64,000 nt of DNA from Anaerovoracaceae bacterium (GTDB lineage Bacteria; Bacillota; Clostridia; Peptostreptococcales; Anaerovoracaceae). The notes under the pieces were generated by a model. That model had not been told where the DNA came from and did not search any database. It worked only from the letters and a program-made list of their open reading frames with translations. The DNA lies in contig JAVBLY010000008.1 in the NCBI GenBank assembly GCA_031553035.1, forward strand, positions 134,858 through 198,857, given 5' to 3'. Shown here piece by piece: positions 34,283 to 62,905 of this stretch (the first letter of the stretch is position 1; each line of letters starts with the position of its first letter). The position numbers and the translations under genes are program-made.

Positions 34283-37147
34283 ATGAAAATACATGAATTA
34301 GCAAAAGAAATAGGAATCCCGAGCAAGGATGTAGTGAGTAAGGCCCAGGATATGGGATATGATGTGAAAAGCCACAACAGCAGTCTGAATGATGCGGAAG
34401 TTTCTTCACTGAAAAGCGCACTTGCATCCGGCGAAGCGAAAGGCGAAACCAAAATAGTGAAAGCGGCAGCAAAGAAAAAGGAAGAAAAAGCGGCTACTGA
34501 GCACCAAAAAGATACTGGGCAGCCTGTTGTAGTAAAAGCGGCCAATATCGATCCCACGACTTTGAAAAAATCAAAGCCTGACAAAGCATCTCATACAGAT
34601 AAAACCGCTAAAACTTCTGAACCCAAAATATCTAAAATACCACCGGAACCTGTTCCCGGTGCAAAAAAGACGACCGGTGGAGCACCCATACCAAGAAGGA
34701 TCCCAAAAGAAGAACTTGCTCCAAAGCGGATCCCAAAAGAAGAGGTTGAGAAGGCAAAAGCCGAGGCAGAAACTGAAACACCTGAAACAGCAACACCTGA
34801 ACCAAAACCTGTTAAAAAAGTTGAGCTTAAGGTTGCACATAAAGATAAAGAACCGCTAGTAAGAAAAGAGCCTAAAAAACAGGAGCCTGAAAAAGCAGAA
34901 GAAAATAATAAAGAAAGCATTAAGGATGCAGAAGCTAAATCAGCAGAAAAAACGCTTGATGCTAAGCCTGTTCACGAAAAGAAAAAAGAAGGTCAGAGAA
35001 AATCTGAACATAGTTCAAAACCTTCTCACGGTGCAAAGCCAACACATGGATCAAAACCACACGAAAAAGGTAAAACTGCACCGGATAAAAGCAAGCCTGC
35101 TGCAGATAAGAGTAAATCGGCAACAGAAAAAAGCAAGCCGTCTGACAAGACTAAAAAACCACATAAAGGTAAGAAAGGTCAGCAGGAACACAACAGCGAA
35201 CACGGAGACAGAAACAAGAAAAGGAATCCTCATCAGAGAGGTCGAGGCGGACTGGTCGATGATTTCAGAGGATCATCAAAAAGACCTATCCTGGAGGACA
35301 ATTTATTAGAGAAAAAGTCTGTTAAGGGTAAACCGAGACCGAAAAGACAGGCAGAACCTGAACCAGTTGATGAAATAGTAATTGAAGAACTTGAACCGGG
35401 TACCGTGGTGATAAACGTTCCCATCACAGTGAAAGGGTTTGCGGAACAGATAGACAAAACAACATCGGATATAATAATGACACTTATGAAGATGGGCGTA
35501 ATGTCAAATGTCAATCAGAATATCGATGAGGATACTGTTTTACTTCTCGGTGATGAACTAGGTGTACCTATAGTCATCGGAACAGATGAAGGTGAAGTAA
35601 TTGAAGACGGCCTAGAAACATTTGAGGATGATCCGAAAGATCTTGTTGCCAGACCTCCCATAATCACAGTCATGGGGCACGTGGATCACGGCAAAACTTC
35701 ACTTCTGGACAAAATCAGAGAAACAGATGTTACCAAAGGTGAAGCTGGCGGGATAACCCAACATATAGGTGCGTCAGAAGTAACTGTCAACGGAAAAAGA
35801 ATCGTTTTCCTGGATACTCCGGGTCATGAAGCCTTTACCGCTATGAGAGCCAGAGGTGCACATGTAACGGATATCGCAATACTGGTGGTGGCTGCTGACG
35901 ACAGCGTTAAACCTCAGACTATCGAGTCAATAAGCCATGCTAAAGCTGCAGGTGTTCCCATCATAGTTGCAATAAACAAAATAGACAAACCGGGCGCAGA
36001 TCCGGACAAAGTCAAAAAGGATCTTGCGGACAATAATATACTGGTTGAAGACTGGGGCGGTGATGTTATCAGTGTTCCCGTATCTGCAAAGTCCGGCGAA
36101 GGAATCCAGGATCTTCTGGAGATGATACTGCTGCAGGCAGAAGTTCTGGAGCTCAAAGCAAATCCCAAGAGACTTGCCATGGGTACTGTAATAGAAGCAA
36201 GACTGGACAAGGCAAAAGGTGCTGTTTCTACATTACTGATTCTTAACGGAACTCTGGATGCAGGCATTAGCATCGTAGCAGGTACAACAAGCGGCAGGAT
36301 TAGAGCCATGACCGATTATAAGGGCAAGAAGCTCAAGTCGGCAGGACCGGCAACAGCAGTTGAAGTTCTCGGTCTTGAAGATGTTCCCCAGGCCGGAGAC
36401 AAGTTCAATGCGGTCAAGGAAGACCGTGTTGCCAGAGAAATAGCGGAAAACAGAAGGCTGAAACAAAGAGAAGAGGTAATGACAAAGATGTCAAACACAA
36501 GCCTCGAAAGCCTGTTCAGTCAGATTCAGGACGGTTCAGTCAAGGAACTGAATCTGATCATCAAGGGAGATGTACAGGGATCTGTCGGAGCTCTCGTTAC
36601 ATCACTTGAAAAACTGGAGAATGAAAACGTAAAGATAAAGATCATACATACCGGAGTAGGCACAGTAACCGAGTCGGATGTAATGCTGGCATCAACATCA
36701 GGAGCCATAATCATTGGGTTCAATGTGAGGCCAAGCGTAGCCGTCACTTCGCTTGCTAACAAAGATAGCGTTGAAATCAGGACATACAGGATCATATACG
36801 ATGTGATCAACGATATCGAAGATGCAATGAAAGGTATGCTGGATCCTGAGTTCAGAGAAGTTGTTCTTGGTCAGGTGGAAGTAAGAGAAACTTTCAAAGT
36901 GCCAAATATCGGGACAATCGCAGGAGCATATGTTACAGACGGTGTAGTTCAGCGTAATGCAGAAGTCAGGTTGGTCCGTGACGGAATCGTAATTCATGAA
37001 GGGAAAATTTCTTCTCTTAAGAGATTTAAGGATGACGTCAAAGAAGTGGCTCAGGGCTACGAATGCGGAATCGGAATCGAGGATTACAATGATGTTAAGA
37101 TAGGTGATGTGATCGAAGCCTTTACTATGGAGGAAATCGAACGATGA
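34283..37147 (+). CDS. infB: translation initiation factor IF-2
   Basis: GTPase motifs [18 protein letters not shown] and NKID. The N-terminal ~330 aa is K/P/E-rich and low in complexity. Confidence 0.95.
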
Positions 37148-45027: not shown

Positions 45028-47112
45028 ATGAAATTCGAAGATTACAAAACATTCAGAACCGCAGTAGGCGGAAGACTGATGGAGATGGAGATCGGCAAGG
45101 TTTGTGAATTTGCAAACGGACAGGTGACCGTGAGATACGGAGATACTGTGATCAACGTTACAGCAGTCGCATCCAAGTCTCCAAGAGACAACATCGACTT
45201 TTTCCCGCTGAGCGTGGATTATGAAGAAAAGATGTATGCTGCCGGCAAGATCCCCGGCGGTTTCATAAAAAGAGAAGCAAGACCTTCAGAAAAAGCCATA
45301 CTTAATTCAAGACTTATAGACAGACCATTAAGGCCGCTTTTCCCCAAGGGATTCTACAATGATGTTCAGATAGTTGCAATGGTTATGTGCGTCGACCCTG
45401 ATTGTCCGCCTGAGATCGCGGCCATGATCGGTTCTTCTGTGGCTCTTTCAATATCGGACATTCCGTTTGAAGGACCTACCGGTTCTGTACTCATAGGCAT
45501 GATCGACGACAAATTCATAGTGAATCCAACAAAGGAAGAAAGAGATGAAAGCATACTTCATCTTACCGTTTCCGGAACCAGAGACGCCATAATGATGGTT
45601 GAAGCCGGAGCGGAAGAGATTTCCGAAGATCTGATGCTGGATGCGATCATGTTTGCACACGAAGAGATCAAGAAGATAATCGATTTCATAGACGAGATCG
45701 TTGCCGAAGTTGGAAAAGAAAAAACTGAATTCGAGCTTTACAAAGTCCCCGAAGAGATCGAGGAAGCAGTAAGAGAATTTGCTACAGACAAAATGAAGGA
45801 AGCCATCAAGACAGTGGAAAAACAGGAACGTCTTGATAACATGAACACAGTAGAGGCTGACACCAAAGTCCATTTTGCAGACCTCTGGCCGGAAAATCCA
45901 AAGGATGTGGATGCAGTTCTTTACGACATCAAGAAAGAAGAAGTCAGAAGCATGATCGTCGATGAAGGTATAAGGCCGGACAACAGAAAAACCGATGAAG
46001 TCAGACCTATTTGGACAGAAACAGGCTTTTTGCCGAGAGCTCACGGAACAGGATTATTCAAGAGAGGACAAACTCAGGTCCTTTCCATAACCACACTGGC
46101 ACCTCTGGGAGAATCTCAGAGAATAGACGGTATAGGTGACGAAGAAGGTAAACGTTATATGCATCACTATAATTTCCCGCCTTATTCAGTAGGCGAGACA
46201 AAGCCGTTAAGAGGTCCCGGAAGACGAGAGATCGGACACGGCGCCCTGGCTGAAAGAGCGTTAATACCGGTTCTTCCGGATGAAGAAGATTTCCCTTACG
46301 CCATAAGAGTGGTATCTGAAGTCCTTTCATCAAACGGAAGTACTTCTATGGGCTCCACATGCGGAAGTTCAATATCTCTTATGGATGCAGGCGTACCTAT
46401 CAAAGCACCTGTTTCAGGGATCGCAATGGGACTGATCAAGCATAACGACAAGATCGCTATCCTTTCCGATATTCAGGGAATGGAAGACTTCCTTGGCGAC
46501 ATGGACTTCAAGGTAGCAGGAACAAAAGACGGGATCACCGCTATCCAGATGGATATAAAGATCCATGGACTTTCCAAAGAAATCCTTCAGGACGCGCTTA
46601 AGCAGGCACATGAAGGCAGAATGCACATAATGAGTGAGATGACGGAAGAGATCAGCGAACCGAGAGCTGAGATGTCCCCGTATGCTCCAAGGATAATTGC
46701 TCTTCAGATCGATGTTGATGATATCAGAACCGTAATAGGACCGGGCGGTAAGACCATCAACAGGATCATAGATGAAACCGGCGTCAAGATAGATATAGAT
46801 GATTCAGGTCTCATATATATTGCGGCACCTGATATGGACAGCGCAGAAAAAGGCGTTGATGCTATCGAGACTTTACTCAAGGATGTTGAAGTCGGAGAGA
46901 TCTACGAAGGGAAGGTAACCAGACTTATGAACTTCGGAGCATTCATAGAAGTGCTGCCGGGCAAAGAAGGACTTCTCCATATTTCCAAGATGGACAACAA
47001 GAGAGTAGAAAAGGTCGAAGATGTAATGAATGTCGGCGATACAGTGCAGGTTAAGGTTACAGAGATCGACAATCAGGGAAGAATCAATCTTTCCAGAAAA
47101 GAATTACTGTAA
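45028..47112 (+). CDS. pnp: polyribonucleotide nucleotidyltransferase (PNPase)
   Basis: Two RNase PH domains, a KH domain ([10 protein letters not shown]), and an S1 domain ([26 protein letters not shown]). Confidence 0.95.
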
Positions 47113-47168: not shown

Positions 47169-47226
47169 TGTATAATGCACTTATACAAAACACATATCCG
47201 GCATAATGAAGGGAATCGGAAAACAA

Positions 47227-48486
47227 ATGATAAGCGAAAAAAAACTGAGCAACGGCATTACCGTTATCATGGAAAAAATCGACTATGTTCAGTCGGTGGC
47301 CGTGGGAATTTTTTTCAGAGCGGGAGCTGTTGACGAAACGTCGGAAAAATCCGGCATATCCCATTTTATCGAACATATGATGTTTAAAGGAACGGAAAAA
47401 AGGTCAGCAAAAGAAATCGCAGAAGATGTGGATATCATAGGCGGCAATATTAATGCATTTACCGGCAAGGAGAACACTTGCTATTACATAAAGACCATAA
47501 CAGAAAACATGGAGGCCGGTATCGAAATACTGGCAGATATGATAAATAATTCAGTGTTTGACGGTTCAGAAATGGAAAAAGAAAAAAATGTTGTTCTGGA
47601 AGAAATGAAAATGATCGAAGACACACCGGATGAACTCTCTATAGATATCCTGGGAGAGACCGTTCTCAAAAATGTGAGGACAGGCAAAAGCATTATCGGG
47701 ACAAAGGAATCGGTGAAATCTATAAAAAGGGACGATATCATAAATTGTATCGACGAATATTATTCTGCCGGAAATATGGTGATATCCATATCAGGGAATA
47801 TGGATATATTTAAGACGGTATCGATCCTTGAGAAGTATTTTTCCGGGATAAAGGAGGGCGTAACTACACGTCCAAAAGAGAACTATATTCACGTGCCTGA
47901 TTATGTCTATAAACACAGAGAAATAGAGCAAACTCACATCGCTCTCGGCAATAAGGGATATGCATATGAAGATAAGGACCACTATGCCATGATCCTTTAC
48001 AGCAATATACTGGGCGGCTCCATGAGTTCCAGACTTTTTCAGAAGGTCAGAGAAGAAAAAGGGCTTGCCTACACAGTTCAGGCTTTTTCTTCCTCATATG
48101 TAGACAACGGGTATTTTACCGTTTATGCCGCAGTGGGACATGACAAGACAGAAGAAGCTATTGAAGCTATCAGAGAAGAGCTTATCAGGTTTAAGAATGA
48201 CGGAGTCGGTGAAAACGAGCTGAAAATGACAAAGGAGCAGATCAAGGGCAACTTTATATTCGGACAGGAAAGCGTCAATAAGAGGATGTTTACAGCCGGC
48301 AGAAATAAGTTGCTTTTAGACAAGTTCATAAGCGATCAGGAGGTCATCAGCAAGGTAGAGAATGTCACAGAAGATGATATAATGAGAATGGCGGAAGAGC
48401 TTGGCAGGCTTGAAGAATACACAGCTGTTATCTTGAGCGGCGAAGATTTCAACCCTGAGGATCTTATGAAGGGAAAAATATCCTAA
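47227..48486 (+). CDS. M16-family (pitrilysin/insulinase-like) zinc peptidase
   Basis: HFIEHMMFKGT (HxxEH) and the downstream E of EEMKM. An alternative ATG lies at 47206. Confidence 0.85.
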   Translation: MISEKKLSNGITVIMEKIDYVQSVAVGIFFRAGAVDETSEKSGISHFIEHMMFKGTEKRSAKEIAEDVDIIGGNINAFTGKENTCYYIKTITENMEAGIEILADMINNSVFDGSEMEKEKNVVLEEMKMIEDTPDELSIDILGETVLKNVRTGKSIIGTKESVKSIKRDDIINCIDEYYSAGNMVISISGNMDIFKTVSILEKYFSGIKEGVTTRPKENYIHVPDYVYKHREIEQTHIALGNKGYAYEDKDHYAMILYSNILGGSMSSRLFQKVREEKGLAYTVQAFSSSYVDNGYFTVYAAVGHDKTEEAIEAIREELIRFKNDGVGENELKMTKEQIKGNFIFGQESVNKRMFTAGRNKLLLDKFISDQEVISKVENVTEDDIMRMAEELGRLEEYTAVILSGEDFNPEDLMKGKIS

Positions 48487-48920: not shown

Positions 48921-49916
48921 ATGCTTACGAGGATCGATTCTGAAAAAAGAGAATACGAGATACTTTCTAAGTTTGCCGCTAAGGCGGCCGAATCTAAAGG
49001 GAGAAAGCTTCCTGAAGAAAAATGCACTTTAAGGACTGATTTCCAGAGGGACAGGGACAGGATAATACATTCCAAAGCCCTGAGAAGGCTCATGCACAAG
49101 ACTCAGGTTTTTCTGTCTCCGGAAGGAGATCACTTCAGGACAAGATTGACCCACACCCTTGAAGTAAGCCAAATTTCAGCTACGATTTCAAGAGCGCTGT
49201 GTCTGAATGAGGACCTGACCGCTGCCATTGCCATGGGTCATGATCTGGGTCATACACCTTTCGGTCACAGCGGTGAGATCATCCTAAATAAGATTTATCC
49301 GGATGGATTCAAGCATAATGAGCAAAGTATAAGAATAGTCGATGTTCTTGAGAGCAGCGGCGGCAAGAGGGGAATGAATCTGACTGAAGAAGTGCGAAAC
49401 GGGATCCTTAATCACACCGGCAGCGGAATACCGTTCACCCTCGAGGGGCAGGTAGTAAAGATAAGCGACCGCATCGCTTATATAAATCACGACATAGACG
49501 ATGCAATAAGGAGCAATGTCATAAATGCCGATGATCTTCCTTCAGAATGCGTGCGGGTCCTGGGAGATACCAAAAAACTGAGAATCGATACGCTTGTCAA
49601 CGATCTGGTGAAAAACAGCGACGGCAAAGACCGGATCATCCAGGGAGAAGAATGCGCATATCACATGGATGAACTGAGAACATATATGTTCAAAAATGTC
49701 TATCATAATGTTAAAGTAAAAAAAGACGAAGAACTTGAAAATGTGGAAAAAATAATAACCGGGCTGTATGATTTTTATCTGGACCATCCTGAGAAACTCC
49801 CGGAGGAATATCGGAATTTAATAGATGAATTCGGAATACAGGAAATGGTCAAAGACCAAATAGCAGGAATGACAGACAGATACGCATTTGAGACATATGA
49901 AGAATTTATTTTATAG
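48921..49916 (+). CDS. dGTPase-like HD-domain triphosphohydrolase
   Basis: FQRDRDRIIHSKALRRL, RTRLTHTLEV, and GHDLGHTPFGH. Confidence 0.85.
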   Translation: MLTRIDSEKREYEILSKFAAKAAESKGRKLPEEKCTLRTDFQRDRDRIIHSKALRRLMHKTQVFLSPEGDHFRTRLTHTLEVSQISATISRALCLNEDLTAAIAMGHDLGHTPFGHSGEIILNKIYPDGFKHNEQSIRIVDVLESSGGKRGMNLTEEVRNGILNHTGSGIPFTLEGQVVKISDRIAYINHDIDDAIRSNVINADDLPSECVRVLGDTKKLRIDTLVNDLVKNSDGKDRIIQGEECAYHMDELRTYMFKNVYHNVKVKKDEELENVEKIITGLYDFYLDHPEKLPEEYRNLIDEFGIQEMVKDQIAGMTDRYAFETYEEFIL

Positions 49917-50375: not shown

Positions 50376-50768
50376 TTATCGGGTTCTCTGATTTTCCTTA
50401 GGGGTGACACACACTCCCTTGGCTCTGCAAACAACGATAGGTTCGTCAAGAACATCTGCAGCACTCGGACTGATATCCGGTCTTACAGCTATTACTTTTC
50501 TTGCCTCAAACTCCATTATTCTGGAAGTCTCACCGTGCTTAGTGATCTCTCCGTATGCTTCGATAAAGTCACCTCCGTAAATAGGCGCCAGGAATTCCAC
50601 ATCGTTGTATTTAAGGAAAAGTCCTTCATCGCCGTCGATTTGAATAAGCAGCTCAGTAGCAACATCTCCGAAAAGGTGCACTGCATGGGCACCGTCTACA
50701 AGATTTCCGCCGTAATGAATATCCTTATGTGAAATCCTCAATCTTATTGTGCTAGTGTACTTGGTCAT
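50376..50768 (-). CDS. kal: 3-aminobutyryl-CoA ammonia-lyase (hotdog fold)
   Basis: 130 aa from the ATG at 50768 (GGGAGGGAAAAATAT upstream). [34 protein letters not shown]...[17 protein letters not shown] matches my recollection of Kal. Lies next to the lysine-fermentation operon. The longer track ORF (to 51005) is an artefact. Confidence 0.75.
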
Positions 50769-50836
50769 ATATTTTTCCCTCCTGTCAATTATACAATTAT
50801 AATACGTAGTCTTATGAAAAGACAAACTAATATATT

Positions 50837-50852
50837 TGCAAAAAACATGCCA
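50837..50852 (-). promoter_or_regulatory. sigma-54 (-24/-12) promoter of kal
   Basis: The minus strand reads TGGCAT-GTTTT-TTGCA. The -12 element ends 69 nt before the kal ATG. Confidence 0.7.
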
Positions 50853-50880
50853 CTGGGTTATCATGTAAATAGCACAATCT

Positions 50881-50896
50881 GAACCGAAAACGGTTC
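50881..50896. promoter_or_regulatory. inverted repeat GAACC-N6-GGTTC, candidate activator-binding site
   Basis: GAACCGAAAACGGTTC followed by GCGCTA. It has the same core as the palindrome at 53076..53107. Confidence 0.5.
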
Positions 50897-50943
50897 GCGC
50901 TAAGTTGGTCAAATTCAATAAATGTGGACAAAAGGGGATAAAT

Positions 50944-53037
50944 ATGCTACAGGATCTTAGAGAAAAATTTAAATATCGCGGACTCAGAAGATGTCTCGAA
51001 CCCAAAGATGTCTTACCGACTACTGCATGGAAGCTTGATAATTCACCTGGGATCTATCCTGAAGAAATAAGGATATCCGTCAAAAAAGTCATGATGGAAT
51101 CCACCAGTTTCAAACAGGTCTGCATTGAATCAAATGATGAAGCAAACAAGATCATAGACAAGGTAAAAGATATAATCGCTAAGAGAGGGAAGCTTCATAA
51201 TCCGGTGACAGACACAGGAGGACTTCTTTACGGTGTGGTTGAGGAAATAGGTGATTTATATGACAACAAAGCCGGGATCAAGCTTGGCGACAGGGTTATA
51301 TGCAACTCGTCACTTGCTTCCATACCTCTTTTTATTGACAAGATCAATTCAATCGATAAAACTTATTCTCTCATGGATGTGGAAGGTTACGGAATTTTGT
51401 TAAATGATTTTCCGATAGTCAAATATACTGACGAAGTGCCTATCGACCTTTTTATGTTTGCATGTAACGAATCCGGGACTTTATACACTGTAAGTGAATA
51501 TTCCAAAGGCAAACAGGATTTTCTTATAATAGGAGATCACTTTATAAGCAACCTCATGTTCGGTTATGCTATCAAAAAAAGTATAGGCGACAGAGCCCAT
51601 ATCACCTGTCTTCTGGACAAAAAAAGTGAAATGAAGATGACAGGAGGTCGCCTTCAGGAGTTGATGGATTCAACATTTGAAGAAATCCATTATGCAGATA
51701 TCTTAAGTCCTCTTGAGTGTGTAGATAAATTCAATCTTGAGAAGAGATATGACCTTGCTGTAAACTGTGCCGACATACCTGGCGGGGAGACAATCAATGT
51801 AATGGCCGCAAAGGACGGCGGTTCTATTTTTTTCGCTAATATGATTAACAACTACAATACCGCTCTCTATGTAACTGAAGCGATTTCCCGGGTGGTTGAT
51901 ATCAAAGGCGCAGGCGGTTATCTGGAGGAATATGCGGATTTCGATATCGAGCTGGTCAAAGAGATAGCACCGTTTTTTAAAGACACGGTTATAAGTGATA
52001 TCGATATGACTGATGACATGGATTATCCTCTTGGAAGAGAGCAGAAAAGTATAGAGCAGGCGGGATACAGGAAGAGCCTTGCCGATGATTTCATATGTGA
52101 GAGCCGTTCCATGATAACAGTTCTGCAGGAAATACTGAGCGTTGCCAAATACGACTGCAACGTTCTGATAATAGGGGAGACAGGTGTGGGCAAGGAAAAA
52201 GTTGCTAATTTAATACACAAAAACAGCACGAGAAATATGCATCCCTTTGTAAAAGTCAACTGCGCAGCAATAGCGCCCAATCTTCTCGAGTCGGAATTTT
52301 TCGGTTATGAAAAAGGGGCATTTACCGGTGCTACCACTTCAGGCAAACAGGGGTTTTTCGAGATCGCAAATAACGGAATCATGTTTCTTGATGAAGTGGC
52401 AGAACTTCCATTCGACCTTCAGGCCAAGCTTCTGAGAGTCATCCAGGATGGCGAGTTTTACAGGGTGGGCGGTACTGAGCCTGTGAAGACGAATGTCCGC
52501 ATACTCTCAGCTTCAAACAAAGATCTTATGAGGCTTGTTGATGAATCAAAATTCAGAGACGATTTGTATTACCGCCTCAATGTTTTTCCCATAAAAGTGC
52601 CGAATCTTTCGGAAAGGCGGATTGAGGTCCCGACGCTCGCTAAGTATTTTCTTGGAAAATATGCAGAAAAATTTGGTGTAAGCAAAGAGATCAGCAGCGG
52701 TGCACTGGACGTGCTTAAGGAACATGAATGGAAGGGCAATATAAGAGAACTGGAGAATATGGTTCAGCGTGTACTTATCAGCTCTCAGAGCGACAGGATA
52801 ACTGTTATGGATGTGACCAAAGAACTGGATAACGAACTTCTGGAAGGTGGAGAATATATAGATGTGGATTTGAGAACGGATGATGTACTTCCGCTTAAGA
52901 CCCTGGTGGAAGATTTTGAGGGAGGCCTCATAAATAAAGCATGTGAAAAATACGGGTCGACAAGAAAGGCAGCAAAAGCACTTGGCATAAGTCAGACTCA
53001 ACTTGTACGGAAAAGAAGAAGAAATGATAATACATAG
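50944..53037 (+). CDS. sigma-54-dependent transcriptional activator with an N-terminal Kdd-like sensor region
   Basis: AAA+ core with [20 protein letters not shown] and NIRELEN. C-terminal Fis-type [24 protein letters not shown]. The N-terminal ~360 aa aligns with the Kdd product encoded at 53277..54308. Confidence 0.9.
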
Positions 53038-53075: not shown

Positions 53076-53107
53076 ATAATAGCGAACCAATATTGGTTCG
53101 CTATTAT
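53076..53107. promoter_or_regulatory. 32-bp perfect palindrome, candidate upstream activating sequence
   Basis: ATAATAGCGAACCAATATTGGTTCGCTATTAT. Its centre lies about 104 bp upstream of the -24 GG. Confidence 0.6.
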
Positions 53108-53193: not shown

Positions 53194-53209
53194 TGGCACG
53201 CCTATTGCT
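53194..53209 (+). promoter_or_regulatory. sigma-54 (-24/-12) promoter of the kdd-kamA...kce operon
   Basis: TGGCAC-GCCTA-TTGCT is an exact match to TGGCAC-N5-TTGCW. The -12 element ends 68 nt before the kdd ATG. Confidence 0.85.
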
Positions 53210-53276: not shown

Positions 53277-54308
53277 ATGAAAAAAGGAAATCCGTTCGGA
53301 ACACACAGAGTTATTTCACCAAAAGGGGTTCTGCCTCAGCCGGCAGATGTCATCGACAACACAATGGAGATTTTTGATAACGAAGTACTCATTGATGTCC
53401 AGACACTTAATGTGGACTCTGCCAGTTTCACACAGATCGAAAAGCAGGCAGAAGGTAATATTGAAGAAATCAAAAAGATCATGAAGGGGATCGTCGCTAA
53501 GGCCGGTAAACATAAGAATCCTGTAACAGGTTCAGGTGGAATGCTTATTGGGACAGTCAGGGAAATTGGGCCGGCATATGAAGGTCTGCTAAAAGTAGGG
53601 GACAAAATAGCAACTCTGGTTTCACTTTCACTGACACCCCTCGTTATCGAAGAGATAATCGAAATAAGACCTGACATCGACCAGGTGGATATCAAAGGGC
53701 AGGCAATACTTTTCCAGAGCGGCATCTATGCAGTACTTCCCGACGATATGCCCGAAACTCTTGCATTATCAGTACTTGACGTTGCAGGTGCTCCGGCGCA
53801 GGCAGCAAGAATGGTGCAGGCCGGAGATACGGTTGTGGTAATCGGCGGCGGCGGAAAATCAGGACTTCTCTGTTTGTTTGAAGCAAAGAAAAGAGCCGGA
53901 GTTACGGGCAAGGTCATCTGCGTCGGAGGTTCGGACAAGTCGACAAACAGAGCCAAGAAACTGGGCCTGGCTGATGAATACTTTGCAATGGATGCGACAG
54001 ATGCAGTAGGCATGTATGACAAGATCATGGAACTTACAGACGGACAGCTTGCTGATCTGGTAATCAACTGTGTAAACATAGAGAACACTGAAATGGCTTC
54101 GATTCTGGCATGCAAGGAAAGAGGGATGGTTTACTTCTTCTCAATGGCAACAAGCTTCACAAAAGCAGCCCTCGGCGCGGAAGGCGTAGGAAAAGATGTT
54201 ACTATGATCGTCGGAAACGGTTATGCCAAGGATCATGCCGCTATTGCACTTCAGGTCCTTAGAGATTCACCAGAGATTCGCGAACTATTTGAAGAAATGT
54301 ACGCATGA
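53277..54308 (+). CDS. kdd: L-erythro-3,5-diaminohexanoate dehydrogenase
   Basis: 343 aa. Rossmann loop VVVIGGGGKSG. The size and position beside kamA/kamDE/kce fit Kdd. GGAGGG RBS before the ATG at 53277. Confidence 0.8.
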   Translation: MKKGNPFGTHRVISPKGVLPQPADVIDNTMEIFDNEVLIDVQTLNVDSASFTQIEKQAEGNIEEIKKIMKGIVAKAGKHKNPVTGSGGMLIGTVREIGPAYEGLLKVGDKIATLVSLSLTPLVIEEIIEIRPDIDQVDIKGQAILFQSGIYAVLPDDMPETLALSVLDVAGAPAQAARMVQAGDTVVVIGGGGKSGLLCLFEAKKRAGVTGKVICVGGSDKSTNRAKKLGLADEYFAMDATDAVGMYDKIMELTDGQLADLVINCVNIENTEMASILACKERGMVYFFSMATSFTKAALGAEGVGKDVTMIVGNGYAKDHAAIALQVLRDSPEIRELFEEMYA

Positions 54309-54377: not shown

Positions 54378-55646
54378 ATGATGGAAAAATATACTTATAG
54401 AAACTGGAAAGACATTCCGCTATACAAAGATGTTACTGAAGAACAGTGGAACGACTGGCACTGGCAGATCAAGAACAGACTGACCACCGTAGAAGAGATC
54501 GGACAAGTCATTAAGCTTACCGAAAAGGACGAAGAGGATATTACTAAGGTCATGGAAGGATTCCGAGTAGGGATCACACCTTACTATGCATCTCTCATGG
54601 ATCCCGACGATCTTAAAGATCCCGTAAGACTTCAGGCGGTACCGACTTTGGCCGAGTCTAAGAGAGGATCGGCAGACATGGAAGATCCGCTTCATGAGGA
54701 TGAAGACTCACCGGCTCCCGGCCTTACTCACAGATATCCCGACAGAGTACTTTTCTTGATCACAGACCAGTGCTCAATGTACTGCAGGCACTGTACAAGG
54801 AGAAGACTTGCAGGCGAAAAAGACGGAGCAAGATCAAGAGCAGATATAGATGCATGTATTGCATATGTAAAGAAAACACCTCAGGTAAGAGACGTCCTGC
54901 TTTCCGGCGGTGACTGCCTTTGCGTATCAGATGATACATTAGAATACATAATCAGCGAACTTAGAAAGATCGAACATGTCCAGATCGTAAGACTGGGGTC
55001 AAGAACACCTGTTGTTATGCCTCAGAGAATCACAGACAACCTCGTTAACATGCTGAAAAAATATCATCCAATATGGCTCAATACTCATTTCAACCATCCA
55101 AAGGAAATGACTCCCGAAGCAATCGCGGCCTGTGCAAAGCTGGCCGATGCAGGAATACCGCTGGGCAACCAATCTGTACTTTTAAGAGGCGTCAACGACA
55201 CTCCTGATGTAATGAGGGAATTAGTTCATGTTCTTGTCGCAAACAGGGTAAGACCGTATTACATTTACCAGTGTGATCTGAGTCTTGGAATAGAACACTT
55301 CAGAACAAAAGTATCAAAGGGAATAGAGCTTATCGAATGTTTGAGAGGACATACTTCAGGATTCTGCGTTCCAACTTTTGTGGTAGACGCTCCGGGCGGC
55401 GGCGGGAAGACCCCGGTTATGCCACAGTACGTAATTTCACAGACACCGGATAAGGTGATCCTGAGAAACTACGAAGGAGTCATCACAACCTATACAGAAC
55501 CTAAGATCAATGAACTGGATCCTGAATATGATGAGACAATCGGTACCACAGCTTATGAGTATGACGGCGTAGCATCTCTTGCCACCGGTAAGCAGATGGC
55601 TCTGGAGCCTGGCAATCTGGAAAGACATAATCGAAACAAAAAATAG
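54378..55646 (+). CDS. kamA: L-lysine 2,3-aminomutase (radical SAM, PLP)
   Basis: CSMYCRHCTRR (CxxxCxxC), and RYPDRVLFLITDQC and GGDCL-type blocks. Confidence 0.95.
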   Translation: MMEKYTYRNWKDIPLYKDVTEEQWNDWHWQIKNRLTTVEEIGQVIKLTEKDEEDITKVMEGFRVGITPYYASLMDPDDLKDPVRLQAVPTLAESKRGSADMEDPLHEDEDSPAPGLTHRYPDRVLFLITDQCSMYCRHCTRRRLAGEKDGARSRADIDACIAYVKKTPQVRDVLLSGGDCLCVSDDTLEYIISELRKIEHVQIVRLGSRTPVVMPQRITDNLVNMLKKYHPIWLNTHFNHPKEMTPEAIAACAKLADAGIPLGNQSVLLRGVNDTPDVMRELVHVLVANRVRPYYIYQCDLSLGIEHFRTKVSKGIELIECLRGHTSGFCVPTFVVDAPGGGGKTPVMPQYVISQTPDKVILRNYEGVITTYTEPKINELDPEYDETIGTTAYEYDGVASLATGKQMALEPGNLERHNRNKK

Positions 55647-55675: not shown

Positions 55676-56710
55676 ATGAAACTGTATGATGAAGTACTAA
55701 ATAAATATGATGTTCTTTCTCTCGTAGGCATGTCCAAGAATGCGGGCAAGACAACCGCCCTCAATTATCTCATCGAGGAAGCCTACGACGAGGATGTCAT
55801 CCCCGGAATCACCTCCACCGGAAGAGACGGTGAAGGAACGGATCTGGTTACAGGAACTGAGAAGCCGAAGGTCTATGTGTATGAAGACAGTATCGTCACC
55901 ATACCCATTGATCTCTTCGACATAGCTGATGCCGGTCTTGAGATCCTCAGCAGAACTAATTATCATTCGACATTCGGAAGCATACTCATGTGCAGGGTAC
56001 TGGATGAAGGATTTGTTCAGGTGGCAGGTCCCACTTCAACAGCTGACCAGAGAAAGCTCAGCAGGGAAATGCTGGAACTGGGTGCAGACATCATACTTAT
56101 CGACGGTGCGATAGACAGGCGTTCAATAGCTTCACCGTTTGCTTCAGATGCCATAATCCTGTCAACCGGAGCAGTACTGTCAAGGGATATGGATATAGTG
56201 GTAATGGATACCATGCATGTGGTCGAACTTTATACTCTGCCTGAATTTGGGTCAGAAGGTAAAGAAAAACAGTATGCAGAAAAGCTTAATGCACCGGGAT
56301 ACTGTGAAAGTACAGTGATCATGAGAAAAGATAAACTGGAAATACAAAGTTGTCAAACCGGTCTGATGGCAGGCAACAAACTGGACAGGCAGATCGATGA
56401 TGAAACGGAATTCCTGTATTTACCGGGAGCTCTTACTACTTCGACTTTGGAATACATTATGCCTGAAAAACTCAGGCAGATCACCTTTGTGGTCAAGGAC
56501 CCCACCAAGATATTCATTGACAGGGTGTCGTACCGAAGGCTTAAGAAAAAAGGTCTGAAAATCAAGGTTCTTAAGGGCATAAAGGTAGCTGCCATAACAG
56601 TTAATCCGTATTCTCCCGAAGGATATTCTTTCGGAAACAATATGCTTCTTGAAGCAATGCGGGATGCTGCAGGCGATCTTCCGGTAATAGATGTAAAAAA
56701 ACCTGATTAA
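55676..56710 (+). CDS. P-loop NTPase-like protein of unknown function, embedded in the lysine operon
   Basis: N-terminal Walker A LVGMSKNAGKTT. 344 aa. I recognise no other motif. Confidence 0.55.
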   Translation: MKLYDEVLNKYDVLSLVGMSKNAGKTTALNYLIEEAYDEDVIPGITSTGRDGEGTDLVTGTEKPKVYVYEDSIVTIPIDLFDIADAGLEILSRTNYHSTFGSILMCRVLDEGFVQVAGPTSTADQRKLSREMLELGADIILIDGAIDRRSIASPFASDAIILSTGAVLSRDMDIVVMDTMHVVELYTLPEFGSEGKEKQYAEKLNAPGYCESTVIMRKDKLEIQSCQTGLMAGNKLDRQIDDETEFLYLPGALTTSTLEYIMPEKLRQITFVVKDPTKIFIDRVSYRRLKKKGLKIKVLKGIKVAAITVNPYSPEGYSFGNNMLLEAMRDAAGDLPVIDVKKPD

Positions 56711-56722
56711 GAGGAGATAGAT

Positions 56723-58372
56723 GTGCTTAAAACTAAGCTTTCAAATGAAAAAACCAAGGTTGAACTGGGACTGAGATACGTCATCGGACGGATCGACGTT
56801 CTTACTCCTTTTGGGAAAAAAATCATAAAAAAGCTGAAGCCGAATTTTCCGGGCAGTGAAGGACGCCTTGTAAAAGAACTGGATAAGCTTGAGGTTATCA
56901 GAAAGATAATAGACGATTATGAAGATACTTTAAGCAAGATCTCCGGTATATTCATGCAGATCAAGGACAACAGCTTCACCCTGGAAAGAAGTGCTTTTGA
57001 CGTACTTACCGTTGTCGAGCTGTTTGAAATAAAGACATTTTTGCTCCAGCTTGAGACTTTGAGCGGTCTTTATGCTAAACTGGGCAGCGATTTTCCTGAT
57101 GAATATACACCGGCGGATACCAAGGAACTTCTGGATCTTATGGATCCGGAAGACAGCAGACTGGCTACATTCTATATCTATGACACATTTTCCCTGAAGC
57201 TTGCAGAGTACCGTAAGGAAAAAAGGCAGCTTGAAAAGAACCTTAAAAGGGAACAGAAGCTGATCAAGGACAGAATTTATGAAGAGCACGGACTTCAACT
57301 CAGTCCGAAATTCGACATAATAATATCCAGATCCGATGCCGAATCCCTGGAAAAGATAAAAAGCATCCCTGAACTTGTAATGGGTACCGAAGATTATATA
57401 TCGGTCATATTTGCTCTTGAGAAGACTGAAGAACAGCTCAAGATCAAGGAACAGATCGAAGATCTCAACACGAAAATTGATGAGGAAGAATATATAGTAA
57501 GAAAAATGCTCACCGATAAAGTGTTTGAGAACAGAAAGACCATAACCAGAAACACCAAAAAAATAGGCGATCTGGACTTTGTAATCGCCAAAGCCAAATT
57601 TGCCAGAAAGCACAACTGTATAAAACCGAATATCGTGCTGAACCACATTATAGATATAAAAGAGGGCAGATACCTGCCTGTGGAAGACGCTCTTGAAGAA
57701 AAGGGCAAGCATTACCTCCCGATCACAATAGGATTGAATGACGGTGTAACATGCATAACCGGTGCGAACATGGGGGGGAAAACCGTTTCCATGAAGCTGG
57801 TGGGACTGCATGCTATGCTGTCACAATACGGATTTTTTGTACCTTGTAAAGAATGCACGGTAGGTCTGTCCTCTTTTATTCATATACTTGTAGGTGATAG
57901 TCAGGACATACAGAGAGGGCTTTCAAGCTTCGGCTCCGAAATGGAAGAACTGGCCCAGATCCTGGATAACGGCAAGGATAGATCTATGATACTGATCGAC
58001 GAGATAGCAAGTTCCACAAATCCGTTCGAAGGTTTTGCCCTGACTAAATCCCTTGTGGAATACCTGAGGGAAAGGCCGTATATCAGCCTCATCACCACTC
58101 ATTATGAGAATGTAAGCACTTCGGAGAATATAAAAAGTCTTCAGGTGAGAGGTCTTGCGGATGCCGATTTTGAGAAGCTTTCTAAAGAGCTGACCGGCGC
58201 AAAAGACAATGAGCGAATTGACGTAATAGCAAATTACATGGACTATAATCTTGTAGATTCAAACGAGGGCAAAAATGTGCCCAAGGAAGCACTTAATATA
58301 GCATATGTGCTTGGAGTGAAGAAAGAAATAATAGACAATGCCAAGCAGATGATAACAAGTGAATTATTTTAA
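56723..58372 (+). CDS. MutS-domain-V ATPase-like protein (no mismatch-binding or Smr domain)
   Basis: GTG start after GAGGAG. Shows ITGANMGGKTVSMK (Walker A), SSFGSEMEE, ILIDEIASSTNPFEG (Walker B), and LITTHY. Confidence 0.75.
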   Translation: MLKTKLSNEKTKVELGLRYVIGRIDVLTPFGKKIIKKLKPNFPGSEGRLVKELDKLEVIRKIIDDYEDTLSKISGIFMQIKDNSFTLERSAFDVLTVVELFEIKTFLLQLETLSGLYAKLGSDFPDEYTPADTKELLDLMDPEDSRLATFYIYDTFSLKLAEYRKEKRQLEKNLKREQKLIKDRIYEEHGLQLSPKFDIIISRSDAESLEKIKSIPELVMGTEDYISVIFALEKTEEQLKIKEQIEDLNTKIDEEEYIVRKMLTDKVFENRKTITRNTKKIGDLDFVIAKAKFARKHNCIKPNIVLNHIIDIKEGRYLPVEDALEEKGKHYLPITIGLNDGVTCITGANMGGKTVSMKLVGLHAMLSQYGFFVPCKECTVGLSSFIHILVGDSQDIQRGLSSFGSEMEELAQILDNGKDRSMILIDEIASSTNPFEGFALTKSLVEYLRERPYISLITTHYENVSTSENIKSLQVRGLADADFEKLSKELTGAKDNERIDVIANYMDYNLVDSNEGKNVPKEALNIAYVLGVKKEIIDNAKQMITSELF

Positions 58373-58387
58373 GAAAGGATGCAAACT

Positions 58388-59941
58388 ATGAGCAAATTGA
58401 ATCTTGATCCGAAAATCATTGACGGTGCCCGTAGCTGCGCGGCAAGAATAGCCGAAGATGTTCAGCAGTTTATCGAAAAGCATACTACGGTAAGCACGGA
58501 AAGAACTGTTGCAAGACTTCTCGGTATCGACGGGACAGATGATGTGGGGACACCTCTTCCGAATATTCTGATCGAACAGATAAAGGATGCCGGCGGCCTG
58601 GCAAGAGGCTGTGCATATTGGATCGGCAATGCAATGATCGAAACCGGGCTGAGCCCACAGGAAATAGCACAGAAAGTAAGCGACGGAGAAATAGAGATCA
58701 CTAAGCTTGCTGCATCTTCTGCTGAAGACACGGAGGCAAAAATATATCCGGCAGTGGAAGCAGCACTTGCAAAAATAAAAGAACAGAGAGAATTCAGAGA
58801 AGATACAATAGATAGAATAGGTGAGGGACGACAGCCTTACCTGTATGTAATAGTTGCCACCGGCAACATTTATGAAGACGTTGTTCAGGCACAGGCCGCC
58901 GTAAGGCAGGGTGCCGACGTAGTAGCTGTCATAAGGACCACTGCTCAAAGCCTGCTGGATTATGTTCCATACGGACCTACCACAGAAGGCTTCGGCGGAA
59001 CATATGCCACTCAGGAGAATTTCAAGATCATGAGGGAAGCTCTGGACGAAGTAGGTGAAGAAGTGGGCAGATACATAAGACTCTGTAACTATTCATCAGG
59101 CATGTGCATGGCGGAGATCGCCGCTATGGGAGCCCTTGAGAGACTTGATATGATGCTCAATGATGCTCTTTACGGCATACTCTTTAGAGATATCAATATG
59201 CAGAGAACTCTCGTCGACCAGTATTTCTCAAGAGTCATAATCGGGTATTCAGGAATCACCTTCAATTCAGGTGAGGATAATTATCTTACAACATCTGATG
59301 CATTTGAAGAAGCACACACAGTACTGGCTTCACAGTTTTTGAATGAGCAATTCGCGGTGCTCGCAAATATTCCCGAAGACCAGATGGGCCTCGGACACGC
59401 ATTCGAGATGGATCCGGCTCTTGAAGACGGATTCCTTTATGAGGTTTCACAGGCAATAATGGCAAGGGAAATTTTCCCTGAAGCTTCGCTTAAATACATG
59501 CCGCCCACAAAGTTCATGACAGGTAATATTTTTAAGGGACAGATTCAGGATGCTCTGTTCAACCTGGTTTCGGTCTGGTCAGGACAAAGTATTCAGCTTC
59601 TTGGTATGCTTACGGAAGCCATACATACACCTTTCATGCAGGACAGATATCTTTCACTTGAAAATGCCGGCTATATTTTCAACAACGCGAGACATCTCGG
59701 CGACGAGATCGAATTCAAGAAAGACGGTATCATTCAGAATAGAGCCGTATCCGTACTTGATGAAGCAGACAAGATGCTCCATCAGATCGAAAAGGATACG
59801 CTGTTTACAACTATAGAACAGGGTAAGTTCGGCGGTGTCAAAAGGGCACGTGACGGCGGAAAAGGACTGGATGGTGTCATAGTCAAAGATGACAGATATT
59901 TCAATCCGTTTATTTCTGCAATGATGGGAGGTGACAAATAA
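58388..59941 (+). CDS. kamD: lysine 5,6-aminomutase alpha subunit
   Basis: LNLDPKIIDGARSCAARIAEDVQQFI...TVSTERTVARLLGIDG. About 517 aa, immediately followed by the B12-binding subunit. Confidence 0.9.
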   Translation: MSKLNLDPKIIDGARSCAARIAEDVQQFIEKHTTVSTERTVARLLGIDGTDDVGTPLPNILIEQIKDAGGLARGCAYWIGNAMIETGLSPQEIAQKVSDGEIEITKLAASSAEDTEAKIYPAVEAALAKIKEQREFREDTIDRIGEGRQPYLYVIVATGNIYEDVVQAQAAVRQGADVVAVIRTTAQSLLDYVPYGPTTEGFGGTYATQENFKIMREALDEVGEEVGRYIRLCNYSSGMCMAEIAAMGALERLDMMLNDALYGILFRDINMQRTLVDQYFSRVIIGYSGITFNSGEDNYLTTSDAFEEAHTVLASQFLNEQFAVLANIPEDQMGLGHAFEMDPALEDGFLYEVSQAIMAREIFPEASLKYMPPTKFMTGNIFKGQIQDALFNLVSVWSGQSIQLLGMLTEAIHTPFMQDRYLSLENAGYIFNNARHLGDEIEFKKDGIIQNRAVSVLDEADKMLHQIEKDTLFTTIEQGKFGGVKRARDGGKGLDGVIVKDDRYFNPFISAMMGGDK

Positions 59942-60714
59942 TGACTGCTGAAAAAAAGATAGCTACATCAAATGTAGATTTAAAGAAAGTAAAGCCATAC
60001 GGCGATACAATGAACGACGGCAAAACACAGCTCAGTTTCACCCTTCCTGTTCCTTATGGTCCAGAGGCCGATGAAGCGGCAAAACTTTTATGCAAAAAAA
60101 TGGGAATGGACGAACCGAACGTGGTTTATTCTAAAGATATGGGCGGCGGATTCACATTTTTCGTCGTATACGGAAGCTGTCAGCATACTATCGACTACAC
60201 AACAATAAAAGTAGCCAAGGTGGATGTTGAAATCATGGACAGGGAACAGTGCCAGGAATTCATCGAAGAGAACATCAAGCGTGAAGTCGTTATCGTAGGG
60301 GCTTCATCAGGTACTGATGCCCACACGGTAGGCATCGATGCGATAATGAACATGAAGGGCTTTCACGGTCACTTCGGCCTGGAAAGATTCAAGGGTATCG
60401 ATGCTCTGAATATGGGTTCTCAGGTTCCAAATGAAGAACTGGTCGCAAAGGCAATCGAAATGAATGGGGACGCAATAATCGTTTCACAAACTGTAACACA
60501 GAAAAATGTACACATACAGAACTTGACCAATCTTGTTGAGCTTGTGGAAGCGGAAGGCATAAGAGACAGAATAGTCCTCTGCTGCGGGGGACCCAGGATA
60601 TCACACGAACTGGCTCAGGAACTTGGCTATGATGCAGGGTTCGGACCACATACATATGCCGAACATGTAGCTTCGTTCGTACTGACGGAAATAATCAGAA
60701 GAAAGCTTGTTTAA
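59941..60714 (+). CDS. kamE: lysine 5,6-aminomutase beta subunit (cobalamin/PLP-binding)
   Basis: Start overlaps the kamD stop (TAATG). B12 motif SSGTDAHTVG (DxHxxG). Confidence 0.9.
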   Translation: MTAEKKIATSNVDLKKVKPYGDTMNDGKTQLSFTLPVPYGPEADEAAKLLCKKMGMDEPNVVYSKDMGGGFTFFVVYGSCQHTIDYTTIKVAKVDVEIMDREQCQEFIEENIKREVVIVGASSGTDAHTVGIDAIMNMKGFHGHFGLERFKGIDALNMGSQVPNEELVAKAIEMNGDAIIVSQTVTQKNVHIQNLTNLVELVEAEGIRDRIVLCCGGPRISHELAQELGYDAGFGPHTYAEHVASFVLTEIIRRKLV

Positions 60715-60739
60715 AAGGGCAGGTAAGGAGGAAGATGAA

Positions 60740-61420
60740 TTGATAGATAAAATCAAAACTGCCGAGGAGGCGATCGCAAATATCGAAGACGGCGCAAGCA
60801 TAATGATAGGAGGCTTCATGGCCTGCGGTTCGCCGGAGATCCTCATCGATGCACTGGTCAAAAAGAATGTAAAGAATCTGACCATAATTTGCAATGATGC
60901 GGGAGTGCCGGGAAGAGGAACAGGCAAACTTCTGTCCAACGGACAAATCAAAAAGCTCATTGCATCCCATGTGGGGCTGAATCCTGAGGTCGCAGAAAGG
61001 ATGAACACCGACGATCCTGAGAGGAAGCTGGAATGTCAGTTAATTCCTCAGGGCACACTTGCTGAAAGGATAAGAGCAGGCGGAAGCGGACTTGGCGGTT
61101 TTCTCACTCCGACAGGGGTAGGGACTATCGTCGCTGAAGGCAAGCAGGTAATAAACGTGGGCGGCAGGGATTATCTCCTTGAAGAGCCGCTTAAAGCCGA
61201 CTTTGCTTTTATCAGAGGATCAGTTACGGATAAATTCGGAAATACAACATATAACGGTACTACCAGAACATTCAATCCAATGATGGCGGCAGCTGCTGAT
61301 GAAGTCATCGTCGGTACATGTGAGGTCGTGGAAATGGGCGACATAGATCCCAATAATATCGTGACATCAGGAATATTCGTTGACAGCATAGTGGGAGGTG
61401 AGAAACAATGGCAGATATAA
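60740..61420 (+). CDS. atoD: 3-oxoacid CoA-transferase subunit A (acetoacetate:butyrate/acetate CoA-transferase)
   Basis: IMIGGFMACGSPEILIDAL and PQGTLAERIRAGGSGLGGFLTPTGVGT. Likely TTG start at 60740, seven nt after AAGGAGGA. Confidence 0.85.
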   Translation: MIDKIKTAEEAIANIEDGASIMIGGFMACGSPEILIDALVKKNVKNLTIICNDAGVPGRGTGKLLSNGQIKKLIASHVGLNPEVAERMNTDDPERKLECQLIPQGTLAERIRAGGSGLGGFLTPTGVGTIVAEGKQVINVGGRDYLLEEPLKADFAFIRGSVTDKFGNTTYNGTTRTFNPMMAAAADEVIVGTCEVVEMGDIDPNNIVTSGIFVDSIVGGEKQWQI

Positions 61421-62058
61421 AAGAAAGGATCGCCAAGAGAGTTGCATTAGAGCTTCATGACGGCGATGTTGTGAATCTTGGCATTGGTCTTCCCACAATG
61501 GTTGCAAATCATCTTCCCGAAGATGTACATATAATTCTCCAGTCCGAGAACGGCATAATGGGCATGGGCCCGGCACCTGAGGCAGGCAAAGAAGACGTTG
61601 ACATCGTCAATGCAGGAGCGCAATATGTGACCATCAACAAAGGTGCGATGTTCTTTGACAGCGCAACTTCATTTGGCATAATAAGAGGCGGTCATGTGGA
61701 TGCTACTATTCTGGGTTCCCTCGAAGTCGATGAGCACGGAAATCTTTCTAACTGGATCGTACCGGGAAAGATGGTTCCCGGTATGGGCGGAGCAATGGAT
61801 CTTGTGGTAGGGGCCAAAAAGGTCATAATAGCGATGCAGCATACTCAGAAGGGCAAACACAAAATATTAAAGGAATGTACACTTCCATATACCGCAGTAG
61901 GTGTTGTGGATATGATAGTCACTGAAATGGGCGTTATGGAAGTTACAGACAAGGGGATCGTCCTCACCGAGATCCACCCTGATTTCACAATAGAAGATGT
62001 CCAGGCGGCAACTGACTGCAAACTGATAATAGCCGAAGATCTGAAGGAAATGAAATAA
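61408..62058 (+). CDS. atoA: 3-oxoacid CoA-transferase subunit B
   Basis: VNLGIGLPT, SENGIMGMGP (catalytic Glu context), and GMGGAMDLV. Confidence 0.85.
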   Translation: MADIKERIAKRVALELHDGDVVNLGIGLPTMVANHLPEDVHIILQSENGIMGMGPAPEAGKEDVDIVNAGAQYVTINKGAMFFDSATSFGIIRGGHVDATILGSLEVDEHGNLSNWIVPGKMVPGMGGAMDLVVGAKKVIIAMQHTQKGKHKILKECTLPYTAVGVVDMIVTEMGVMEVTDKGIVLTEIHPDFTIEDVQAATDCKLIIAEDLKEMK

Positions 62059-62074
62059 AGGATGGGGTACTAAA

Positions 62075-62905
62075 ATGGAAAAACTAATTATCAGCGCCTG
62101 CATATGCGGCGCAGAGGTCACTAAAGAGAATAATCCCGCTGTTCCGTATACAGTTGAGGAAATAGTAAGAGAAGCCAAGTCCGCTTATGATGCAGGGGCG
62201 GCAGTCATACATCTCCATGTGAGAGAGGATGACGGTACTCCCACCCAAAGTAAGGACAGATTCCAGGAATGTATGGACGCGATCTACAAAGTATGTCCTG
62301 ACGTTATCATACAGCCTTCAACAGGCGGAGCCGTCGGCATGACCGATCTTGAGAGACTTCAGTCCACCGAAGTTACTCCCACACCTGAATTTGCAACTCT
62401 CGACTGCGGTACCGTAAATTTCGGCGGTGATGAGATCTTTGTCAACACCGACAATACCATATTCAATTTTGCAAAGATCATGCAGGAGAGAGGCATCAAG
62501 CCGGAGCTGGAAGTCTTTGATAAGGGAATGGTTGATATAGCTCTCAAGGTCGATAAAAAAGGTCTGCTTGAGCATCCGCTTCACTTCGACTTCGTCCTTG
62601 GAATCCAGATGACAGCAACTGTCAGAGATCTTGCTTTTATGGTGGGGAGTATTCCTCCCGGATCGACCTGGACAGTAGCAGGAATCGGCAAAAGTGAGTT
62701 TGATATGGCGGCGGCCGGTATAATAATGGGCGGACACGTCAGAGTCGGATTTGAAGACAATCTTTATATAGAAAAGGGTGTTCTTGCCAAGAGCAATGGC
62801 GAACTTGTTGCGAAAGTTGTTAAGATAGCAGAAGTATTAAACAGAGAAATCGCCAGCCCGGATGAGGCAAGAAAGATAATGAACATGCCGATCCAGAAAA
62901 AATAG
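62075..62905 (+). CDS. kce: 3-keto-5-aminohexanoate cleavage enzyme (BKACE/DUF849)
   Basis: KLIISACICGAEVTKENNPAVPYTVEEIVREAKSAYDAGAAVIHLHVREDDGTPT...IIQPSTGG. Confidence 0.9.
   Translation: MEKLIISACICGAEVTKENNPAVPYTVEEIVREAKSAYDAGAAVIHLHVREDDGTPTQSKDRFQECMDAIYKVCPDVIIQPSTGGAVGMTDLERLQSTEVTPTPEFATLDCGTVNFGGDEIFVNTDNTIFNFAKIMQERGIKPELEVFDKGMVDIALKVDKKGLLEHPLHFDFVLGIQMTATVRDLAFMVGSIPPGSTWTVAGIGKSEFDMAAAGIIMGGHVRVGFEDNLYIEKGVLAKSNGELVAKVVKIAEVLNREIASPDEARKIMNMPIQKK

Follow-up and report, generated by a model that had tools for sequence, protein, structure and literature searches.

In a 64,000-nucleotide (nt) stretch of contig JAVBLY010000008.1 from an Anaerovoracaceae bacterium (from here on, the window) we have analyzed two adjacent ATPase-like genes, kamB and kamC, that stand inside a lysine fermentation operon between kamA and kamDE, the genes of the adenosylcobalamin- and pyridoxal phosphate (PLP)-dependent lysine 5,6-aminomutase. 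Our analysis indicates that KamB and KamC together probably form the ATP-dependent accessory component of KamDE, the type of protein known in the older biochemical literature as E2, and we give this reading a probability of roughly 70%. Judged by their sequences the two genes are the KamB/KamC pair already named in curated databases, and in the genomes examined they are firmly tied to kamDE. A preliminary description, made from the letters of this DNA, had taken them for a candidate ATP-dependent reactivase or chaperone of the B12 enzyme. The idea is sound, as curated databases assign the same role and the kamDE neighbourhood agrees with it, but it is not new, because both genes are already NCBIfam equivalogs named as lysine 5,6-aminomutase reactivase subunits.

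The biochemical background is old. According to reviews, lysine 5,6-aminomutase consists of a core, E1 (KamDE), and a separate sulfhydryl protein of roughly 80 kDa, E2, that confers ATP-dependent activation or reactivation, while recombinant KamDE by itself shows no ATP effect. One review adds that isolated E2 had adenosylcobalamin synthetase activity and moved label from [8-14C]ATP to E1. The ATP stimulation and the accessory protein fraction that the preliminary description mentioned are therefore on record. The question of which gene encodes E2 dates from the 1970s.

Identity of kamB and kamC

Both open reading frames (ORFs) and their tight packing between kamA and kamD were confirmed from the sequence: 29 nt separate the kamA stop (55646) from kamB, 12 nt kamB from kamC, and 15 nt kamC from kamD. 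The last figure is given for a kamD start at ATG 58388 (MSKLNL...), the better placed of two candidates with respect to the GAAAGGA ribosome-binding site. The other, ATG 58379, is the start of the listed ORF and abuts that site. The 520-aa form of kamD is missing from the protein collection, and ATG 58388 as the true start may explain this absence. The ribosome-binding sites of the two ATPase genes are good (AAGGAA upstream of kamB and GAGGAG upstream of the GTG of kamC). Homologue searches returned 2,440 database homologues for the first ORF and 3,011 for the second, so we consider them genuine genes rather than chance ORFs.

KamB scored 361.6 bits against the NCBIfam equivalog NF052386, "lysine 5,6-aminomutase reactivase subunit KamB" (cut-off 210), with residues 14-340 aligned to profile positions 1-326 of 326. 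KamC reached 560.1 bits against the equivalog NF052383, "lysine 5,6-aminomutase reactivase ATPase KamC" (cut-off 300), with residues 15-543 aligned to positions 1-507 of 508. The KamB and KamC names are also found in UniRef on homologues in Hornefia, Sinanaerobacter and Anaerovorax. The closest database sequences are 77-83% identical to the window proteins; for the named Anaerovoracaceae members the figure is about 50-55%. Compared with the two named families the window pair thus gives scores above the cut-offs over the full profiles, adjoins kamDE and has no structural difference, the sequences being somewhat divergent. In Perret et al. (2011) the two genes are labelled merely 'HP' and 'mutS'.

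Linkage to kamDE across genomes

A first scan of one genome per GTDB species yielded 80 loci, mostly from Anaerovoracaceae and relatives, and the order kdd-kamA-kamB-kamC-kamD-kamE appeared in 80/80 of them wherever the contig allows. Such taxa are related enough for the synteny to be explained by shared ancestry, and therefore divergent representatives were also examined, namely 17 further places from an exhaustive HMMER search that include representatives only 29-35% identical and with lengths of 473-719 aa. These loci displayed four further gene orders, five in all, with kamBC within 4.2 kb of kamDE. In L082 and L085 kamBC precedes kal-kce-kdd-kamA-kamD-kamE, and in L088, on a Gram-negative-looking contig, it is located about 2 kb downstream of kamE. 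The other two orders are kamA-maoC-kamB-kamC-kamD-kamE (L176) and kdd-kamB-kamC-kamD-kamE (L174). Since kamA is absent from the latter, kamBC is tied to kamDE and not to kamA.

Over the 97 loci taken together, KamB directly precedes KamC in 96, while the contig of the remaining one has only 157 bp of upstream sequence, and kamD was found in all 88 contigs that are long enough, the other nine ending too early. The association with kamDE is thus borne out down to 29% identity, and the pair is genomically locked to the mutase genes. The two genes themselves abut or overlap, with spacings of +12 nt in the window, +2 in L082, 0 in L088, -1 in L090, -4 in L085 and -7 in L091, which fits a complex with its subunits in fixed proportion. 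KamB-KamC fusions were also sought as a sign of a complex, and none of the 507 proteins fetched matched both families. In L174 and L175 KamC is 719 aa long with an internal insertion of ~170 aa; an amidohydrolase gene follows kamE, and a large RHS-repeat protein is encoded beside.

KamC, a MutS2-like ATPase

The translation of kamC contains the motifs GANMGGKT, SSFGSEMEE, ILIDEIASSTNPFEG and TTHY, and Pfam detects in it MutS_V alone (residues 344-494, expectation value (E) 3.4e-31), with no domain I, no domain II and no Smr. The initial assignment as a MutS domain V ATPase that has neither the mismatch-recognition N-domain nor the Smr tail is therefore correct. The likeness to MutS proteins is wider than had been described, though, as the AlphaFold model (predicted local distance difference test score, pLDDT, 80.6) matches them along the core/lever, clamp and ATPase domains. 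Foldseek aligned the model to MutS and MutS2 structures with E values about 1e-22 and template modelling (TM) scores of 0.67-0.72 on the query, and TM was 0.75 on a 495-residue N-terminal fragment of Thermotoga MutS2. The N-terminal 340 residues are thus predicted to be the MutS core/lever and clamp domains, with the ATPase domain next. In an alignment of KamC sequences with 27-54% identity, no variation was seen in the core Walker A residues (GxNMxGK), in the LSxFG signature, in the Walker B glutamate or in the H-loop histidine, and positions flanking the ATPase motifs are at least 90% conserved.

Outside the Kam families the best match of KamC is MutS2, both among profiles (TIGR01069) and among structures (PDB 9kce and 7qv3). 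The TIGR01069 score was 200.8 bits (E 3.7e-59), well short of the cut-off of 400, and the match was limited to profile positions 229-452 of 790. The MutS1 models TIGR01070 and NF003810 gave 137 and 157 bits, and their cut-offs of 642 and 480 were not reached either. KamC and MutS2/RqcU (9kce, 7qv3) have in common the core/lever, the clamp and the ABC-type ATPase, both are devoid of the mismatch-recognition domain I, and the likeness reaches a conserved 'LG..EII..A' helix that follows the ATPase domain. They differ in what comes after it, and in company: MutS2 stands alone, whereas KamC is paired with KamB and kamDE. The C-terminal part of MutS2 is made of a coiled coil, a KOW domain and an Smr domain. 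KamC lacks this part, since the protein ends about 50 residues past the ATPase domain and Pfam sees no Smr. From sequence and model together, the best description of KamC would be a paralogue of MutS2 that is truncated behind its ATPase domain. No structure of KamC or KamB was present in the PDB copy searched.

The preliminary description regarded action on a B12 enzyme, and not on DNA, as an uncharacterised function for the MutS fold. Work on something other than DNA has a precedent, as a structure of MutS2 on collided ribosomes is available (PDB 7qv3), so that the MutS2 fold already serves non-DNA assemblies. The KamC clamp region is net negative (-1 to -5) and the whole protein is acidic (isoelectric point about 5.4), a weak argument against DNA binding.

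KamB, a two-domain P-loop protein

The AlphaFold model of KamB (pLDDT 85.5) has two alpha/beta domains. Three elements of the first one are invariant: the P-loop (in the window GMSKNAGKTT, residues 18-27 of the translation), a TSTGRDGE loop and a strand resembling Walker B, ILIDGA, with the invariant D143, so that the Walker A motif reported before is indeed there and is not the sole nucleotide-binding signature, as had been thought. No Pfam family covering KamB was found. A fold search with the whole model retrieved weak matches to the SIMIBI proteins Get3, SRP54, MinD and ParA (E about 5e-3, TM about 0.27), and no MeaB was among the top 50 of that whole-model search. Sequence profiles gave sub-threshold signals for MobB (molybdopterin-guanine dinucleotide biosynthesis protein B), DUF1611 and YqeC. 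Of the PDB sequences MobB alone was matched by the KamB profile (residues 11-63, E 0.097, below significance), and it was the commonest sub-threshold Pfam match, detected in 22 of 38 KamB members (best E among the 38, 0.0077), while PF03205 (MobB) did not match the KamB of the window at E <= 1. The likeness to MobB is confined to the P-loop and the following strand; with a beta insertion and a C-terminal domain in addition, KamB has twice the length of MobB. On model and profile evidence we would describe KamB as a protein of two domains, one of them a SIMIBI P-loop domain that weakly resembles MobB.

Chaperones of the G3E family that act on B12 enzymes belong to the broad SIMIBI class of P-loop proteins. 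KamB and the MeaB/ArgK-type G3E chaperones of methylmalonyl-CoA mutase would all be nucleotide-dependent helpers of an adenosylcobalamin enzyme, and the SIMIBI P-loop class appears common to them. Between KamB and MeaB no specific match was detected in sequence or, with the whole model, in structure, and KamB has an extra second alpha/beta domain and a MutS2-like partner.

Comparison with ornithine 4,5-aminomutase

We have examined the homologous ornithine aminomutase in 80 metagenomic OraE loci (L092-L171), up to 10 kb at each side, using as query a 225-aa fragment of Clostridium sticklandii OraE rebuilt from a PDB alignment. No homologue of KamB or KamC was found in any of the 80, so the co-occurrence with oraSE that had been contemplated together with that of kamDE does not exist in this set. 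Instead, 79/80 loci code directly 3' of oraE for a protein of 455-470 aa that belongs to NF040744, "GlmL-related ornithine degradation protein" (735 bits, cut-off 600). With a GlmL-like query, in turn, no such gene was detected in the 97 Kam loci or in the window. As there are no cross-matches between KamBC and GlmL, the lysine and ornithine B12/PLP aminomutases appear to be served by unrelated accessory proteins. The GlmL-type proteins (NF040744, and the methylaspartate mutase accessory protein GlmL of NF040745) have, as KamBC has, a B12 mutase as neighbour in the genome; their position in the operon is equivalent, and so presumably is their accessory role for ornithine 4,5-aminomutase. Unlike KamBC, they are single proteins instead of a two-protein pair, and they are unrelated to it in sequence. 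This split between the two aminomutases would be a useful guide for reconstitution work. Many of the OraE loci also have a sigma-54 activator gene about 5 kb upstream.

Proposed role and rival explanations

If KamBC is the E2-type component, its mode of action could be the following. KamC, an ABC-type ATPase derived from MutS2 and equipped with lever and clamp domains, would probably dimerise as MutS proteins do, and ATP binding and hydrolysis would make it grip a suicide-inactivated KamDE. It would then pull the B12-binding Rossmann domain of KamE away from the KamD barrel, and the opened enzyme would let the damaged cobalamin out and fresh adenosylcobalamin in. KamB, the MobB-like SIMIBI P-loop partner, might gate or target the opening step, or handle the cofactor.

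Several points weigh against this role. The clamp-and-pry mechanism is drawn purely by analogy. A 1:1 KamB-KamC complex would have 100.7 kDa, compared with about 80 kDa for E2, and the cysteines that are invariant in close KamC homologues are 40-45% conserved family-wide, which sits poorly with a sulfhydryl protein. All 97 loci were anchored on KamC, and the counts run from KamC to kamDE only. Full-text searches of the accessible literature found no experimental test of KamB or KamC, nor was experimental proof found there that ties kamB/kamC to the classical ATP-dependent E2 protein; the assignment to E2 seems to be based on gene context, and the reactivase name in the databases may rest on the same genomic inference. 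Finally, the homologous ornithine aminomutase uses another accessory protein, so a MutS2-type partner is no general requirement of such enzymes.

We have weighed three other explanations. KamBC might be an ATP-dependent allosteric activator or a MeaB-like chaperone that loads adenosylcobalamin into new KamDE, with no part in repair. The reviews give E2 both functions, reactivation and ATP-dependent allosteric activation of E1, the linkage to kamDE fits equally well, and the N-terminal domain of KamB falls in the broad P-loop class of the G3E B12 chaperones. However, OraS alone is reported in reviews to restore the ATP effect on KamDE, so that allostery may not need E2, and nothing specific connected KamB with G3E or MeaB proteins, its top structural matches being the weak ones to Get3, SRP54, MinD and ParA. 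On balance we find such a role unlikely. A direct transfer of the adenosyl group of ATP to the enzyme-bound cobalamin in place, without cofactor exchange and with KamB as the candidate catalyst, looks more improbable still. It would agree with the synthetase activity and the [8-14C]ATP label transfer credited to isolated E2, and a P-loop is present both in KamB and in the CobA-type adenosyltransferase (PDB 1g5r sequence). But when KamB was compared with Salmonella CobA by hhalign, the alignment comprised 37 columns around the P-loop with a probability of 2.9%, CobA was absent from the top 50 structural matches, and the classical E2 preparation may have held a separate adenosyltransferase. A CobA-type enzyme is thus not supported for KamB.

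The explanation we find hardest to credit is that KamC is an ordinary MutS2-type ATPase of nucleic-acid or ribosome quality control that stands in the lysine operon by chance. Outside the Kam families it is indeed TIGR01069, 9kce and 7qv3 that KamC matches best, and 'MutS2' and 'DNA mismatch repair protein MutS' are names that many sources give to homologues. Yet the TIGR01069 score is half the cut-off and covers part of the profile, Pfam detects neither Smr nor domain I, the clamp region is acidic, and kamC keeps company with kamB and kamDE in all five gene orders. There was no meaningful match to defence systems either: an anti-phage role was considered and discarded, PADLOC giving a trivial ABC-ATPase match alone (E 1.4e-4).

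The reading of KamBC as the ATP-dependent component of KamDE could be extended. KamBC might represent a third and structurally unprecedented class of B12-enzyme repair, beside the GlmL/DdrA and MeaB types, in which a MutS2-derived clamp ATPase works on a protein and not on nucleic acid or ribosomes, while its partner KamB delivers the cofactor or re-adenosylates it in place. Repair systems of unrelated origin would then have been recruited by the lysine and the ornithine aminomutase. Re-adenosylation or hand-over in place by KamB would explain the old transfer of label from adenine-labelled ATP to E1. We regard this extension as speculative and doubt that it holds in full.

The lysine fermentation cluster and its regulation

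The features of the cluster are collected in Table 1. For annotation purposes the case is routine: the two ATPase-like genes are the last pieces of a textbook lysine-fermentation operon, and kamB and kamC are the labels that they should carry. The start of kdd was revised from TTG 53193 to ATG 53278, downstream of the sigma-54 promoter. The kal gene is divergent from the rest of the cluster, and its translation probably begins at Met80 of the listed ORF 50376-51005.

Table 1. Genes and promoter elements of the lysine cluster (positions in the window)
Feature	Position	Strand	Size, evidence and remarks
kal, 3-aminobutyryl-CoA ammonia lyase	50376..50768	-	NF052388 Lys_ferment_KAL 179 bits, cut-off 160
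Sigma-54-type -24/-12 element upstream of kal	50837..50852	-	TGGCATGTTTTTTGCA; one mismatch; pattern search
Sigma-54-dependent transcriptional activator	50905..53037	+	Pfam Sigma54_activat E 1.2e-66; helix-turn-helix
Sigma-54 promoter upstream of kdd	53194..53209	+	TGGCACGCCTATTGCT; sole exact TGGCAC-N5-TTGCW match in the window
kdd, L-erythro-3,5-diaminohexanoate dehydrogenase	53278..54308	+	NF052381 263 bits, cut-off 200
kamA, lysine 2,3-aminomutase (radical SAM)	54378..55646	+	TIGR03820 608 bits, cut-off 525; Pfam LAM_C, Radical_SAM
kamB (first ORF), P-loop subunit of presumed reactivase	55676..56710	+	344 aa, 38.1 kDa; NF052386
kamC (second ORF), MutS2-like ABC-type ATPase subunit of presumed reactivase	56723..58372	+	GTG start; 549 aa, 62.6 kDa; NF052383
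kamD	58388..59941	+	NF052384 899 bits, cut-off 600; Pfam Lys-AminoMut_A E 8.7e-265
kamE	59941..60714	+	NF052385 406 bits, cut-off 280; PDB 8t0v_C E 1e-110, 1xrs_B E 1e-98
3-oxoacid CoA-transferase subunits A, B	60707-61420, 61408-62058	+	TIGR02429, TIGR02428, above cut-off
kce	62075..62905	+	NF052387 418.7 bits, cut-off 382

No terminator-like hairpin was found on the + strand between 53200 and 63300, and a single sigma-54 promoter is likely to drive the operon from kdd to kce. As this sole promoter lies upstream and no terminator intervenes, kamB and kamC are very probably co-transcribed with the mutase genes. Sigma-54 elements precede both kdd and kal, so the lysine cluster looks sigma-54 dependent as a whole. 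The N-terminal domain of the activator is homologous to the N-domain of the pathway enzyme Kdd, residues 26-182 matching the NF052381 profile (E 2.9e-36), and may be a sensor of enzyme origin that responds to an intermediate of the pathway. Most of the 80 GTDB loci have the activator gene conserved upstream of kdd; in the divergent locus L090 a PAS-type activator takes its place. About 90 nt upstream of the kdd promoter there is a perfect palindrome of 28 nt, AATAGCGAACCAATATTGGTTCGCTATT (53078-53105), in a single copy in the window, that could be the binding site of the activator or the terminator of the regulator gene.

Far from the cluster, positions 1745-3142 (+) of the window code for a HemL-like class-III transaminase (NF005453, 581 bits). 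In the alternative lysine pathway the 3-aminobutyryl-CoA transaminase Kat is likewise HemL-like (PMC3149608); this genome also has kal. The region 23500-48500 looks like ordinary chromosomal housekeeping. Genes confirmed in the window include those for IF-2 (34283-37147), polynucleotide phosphorylase (45028-47112), an M16-type peptidase (47206-48486) and a dGTPase (48921-49916). With the remaining window of this housekeeping kind, the lysine operon appears to be on no obvious mobile element.

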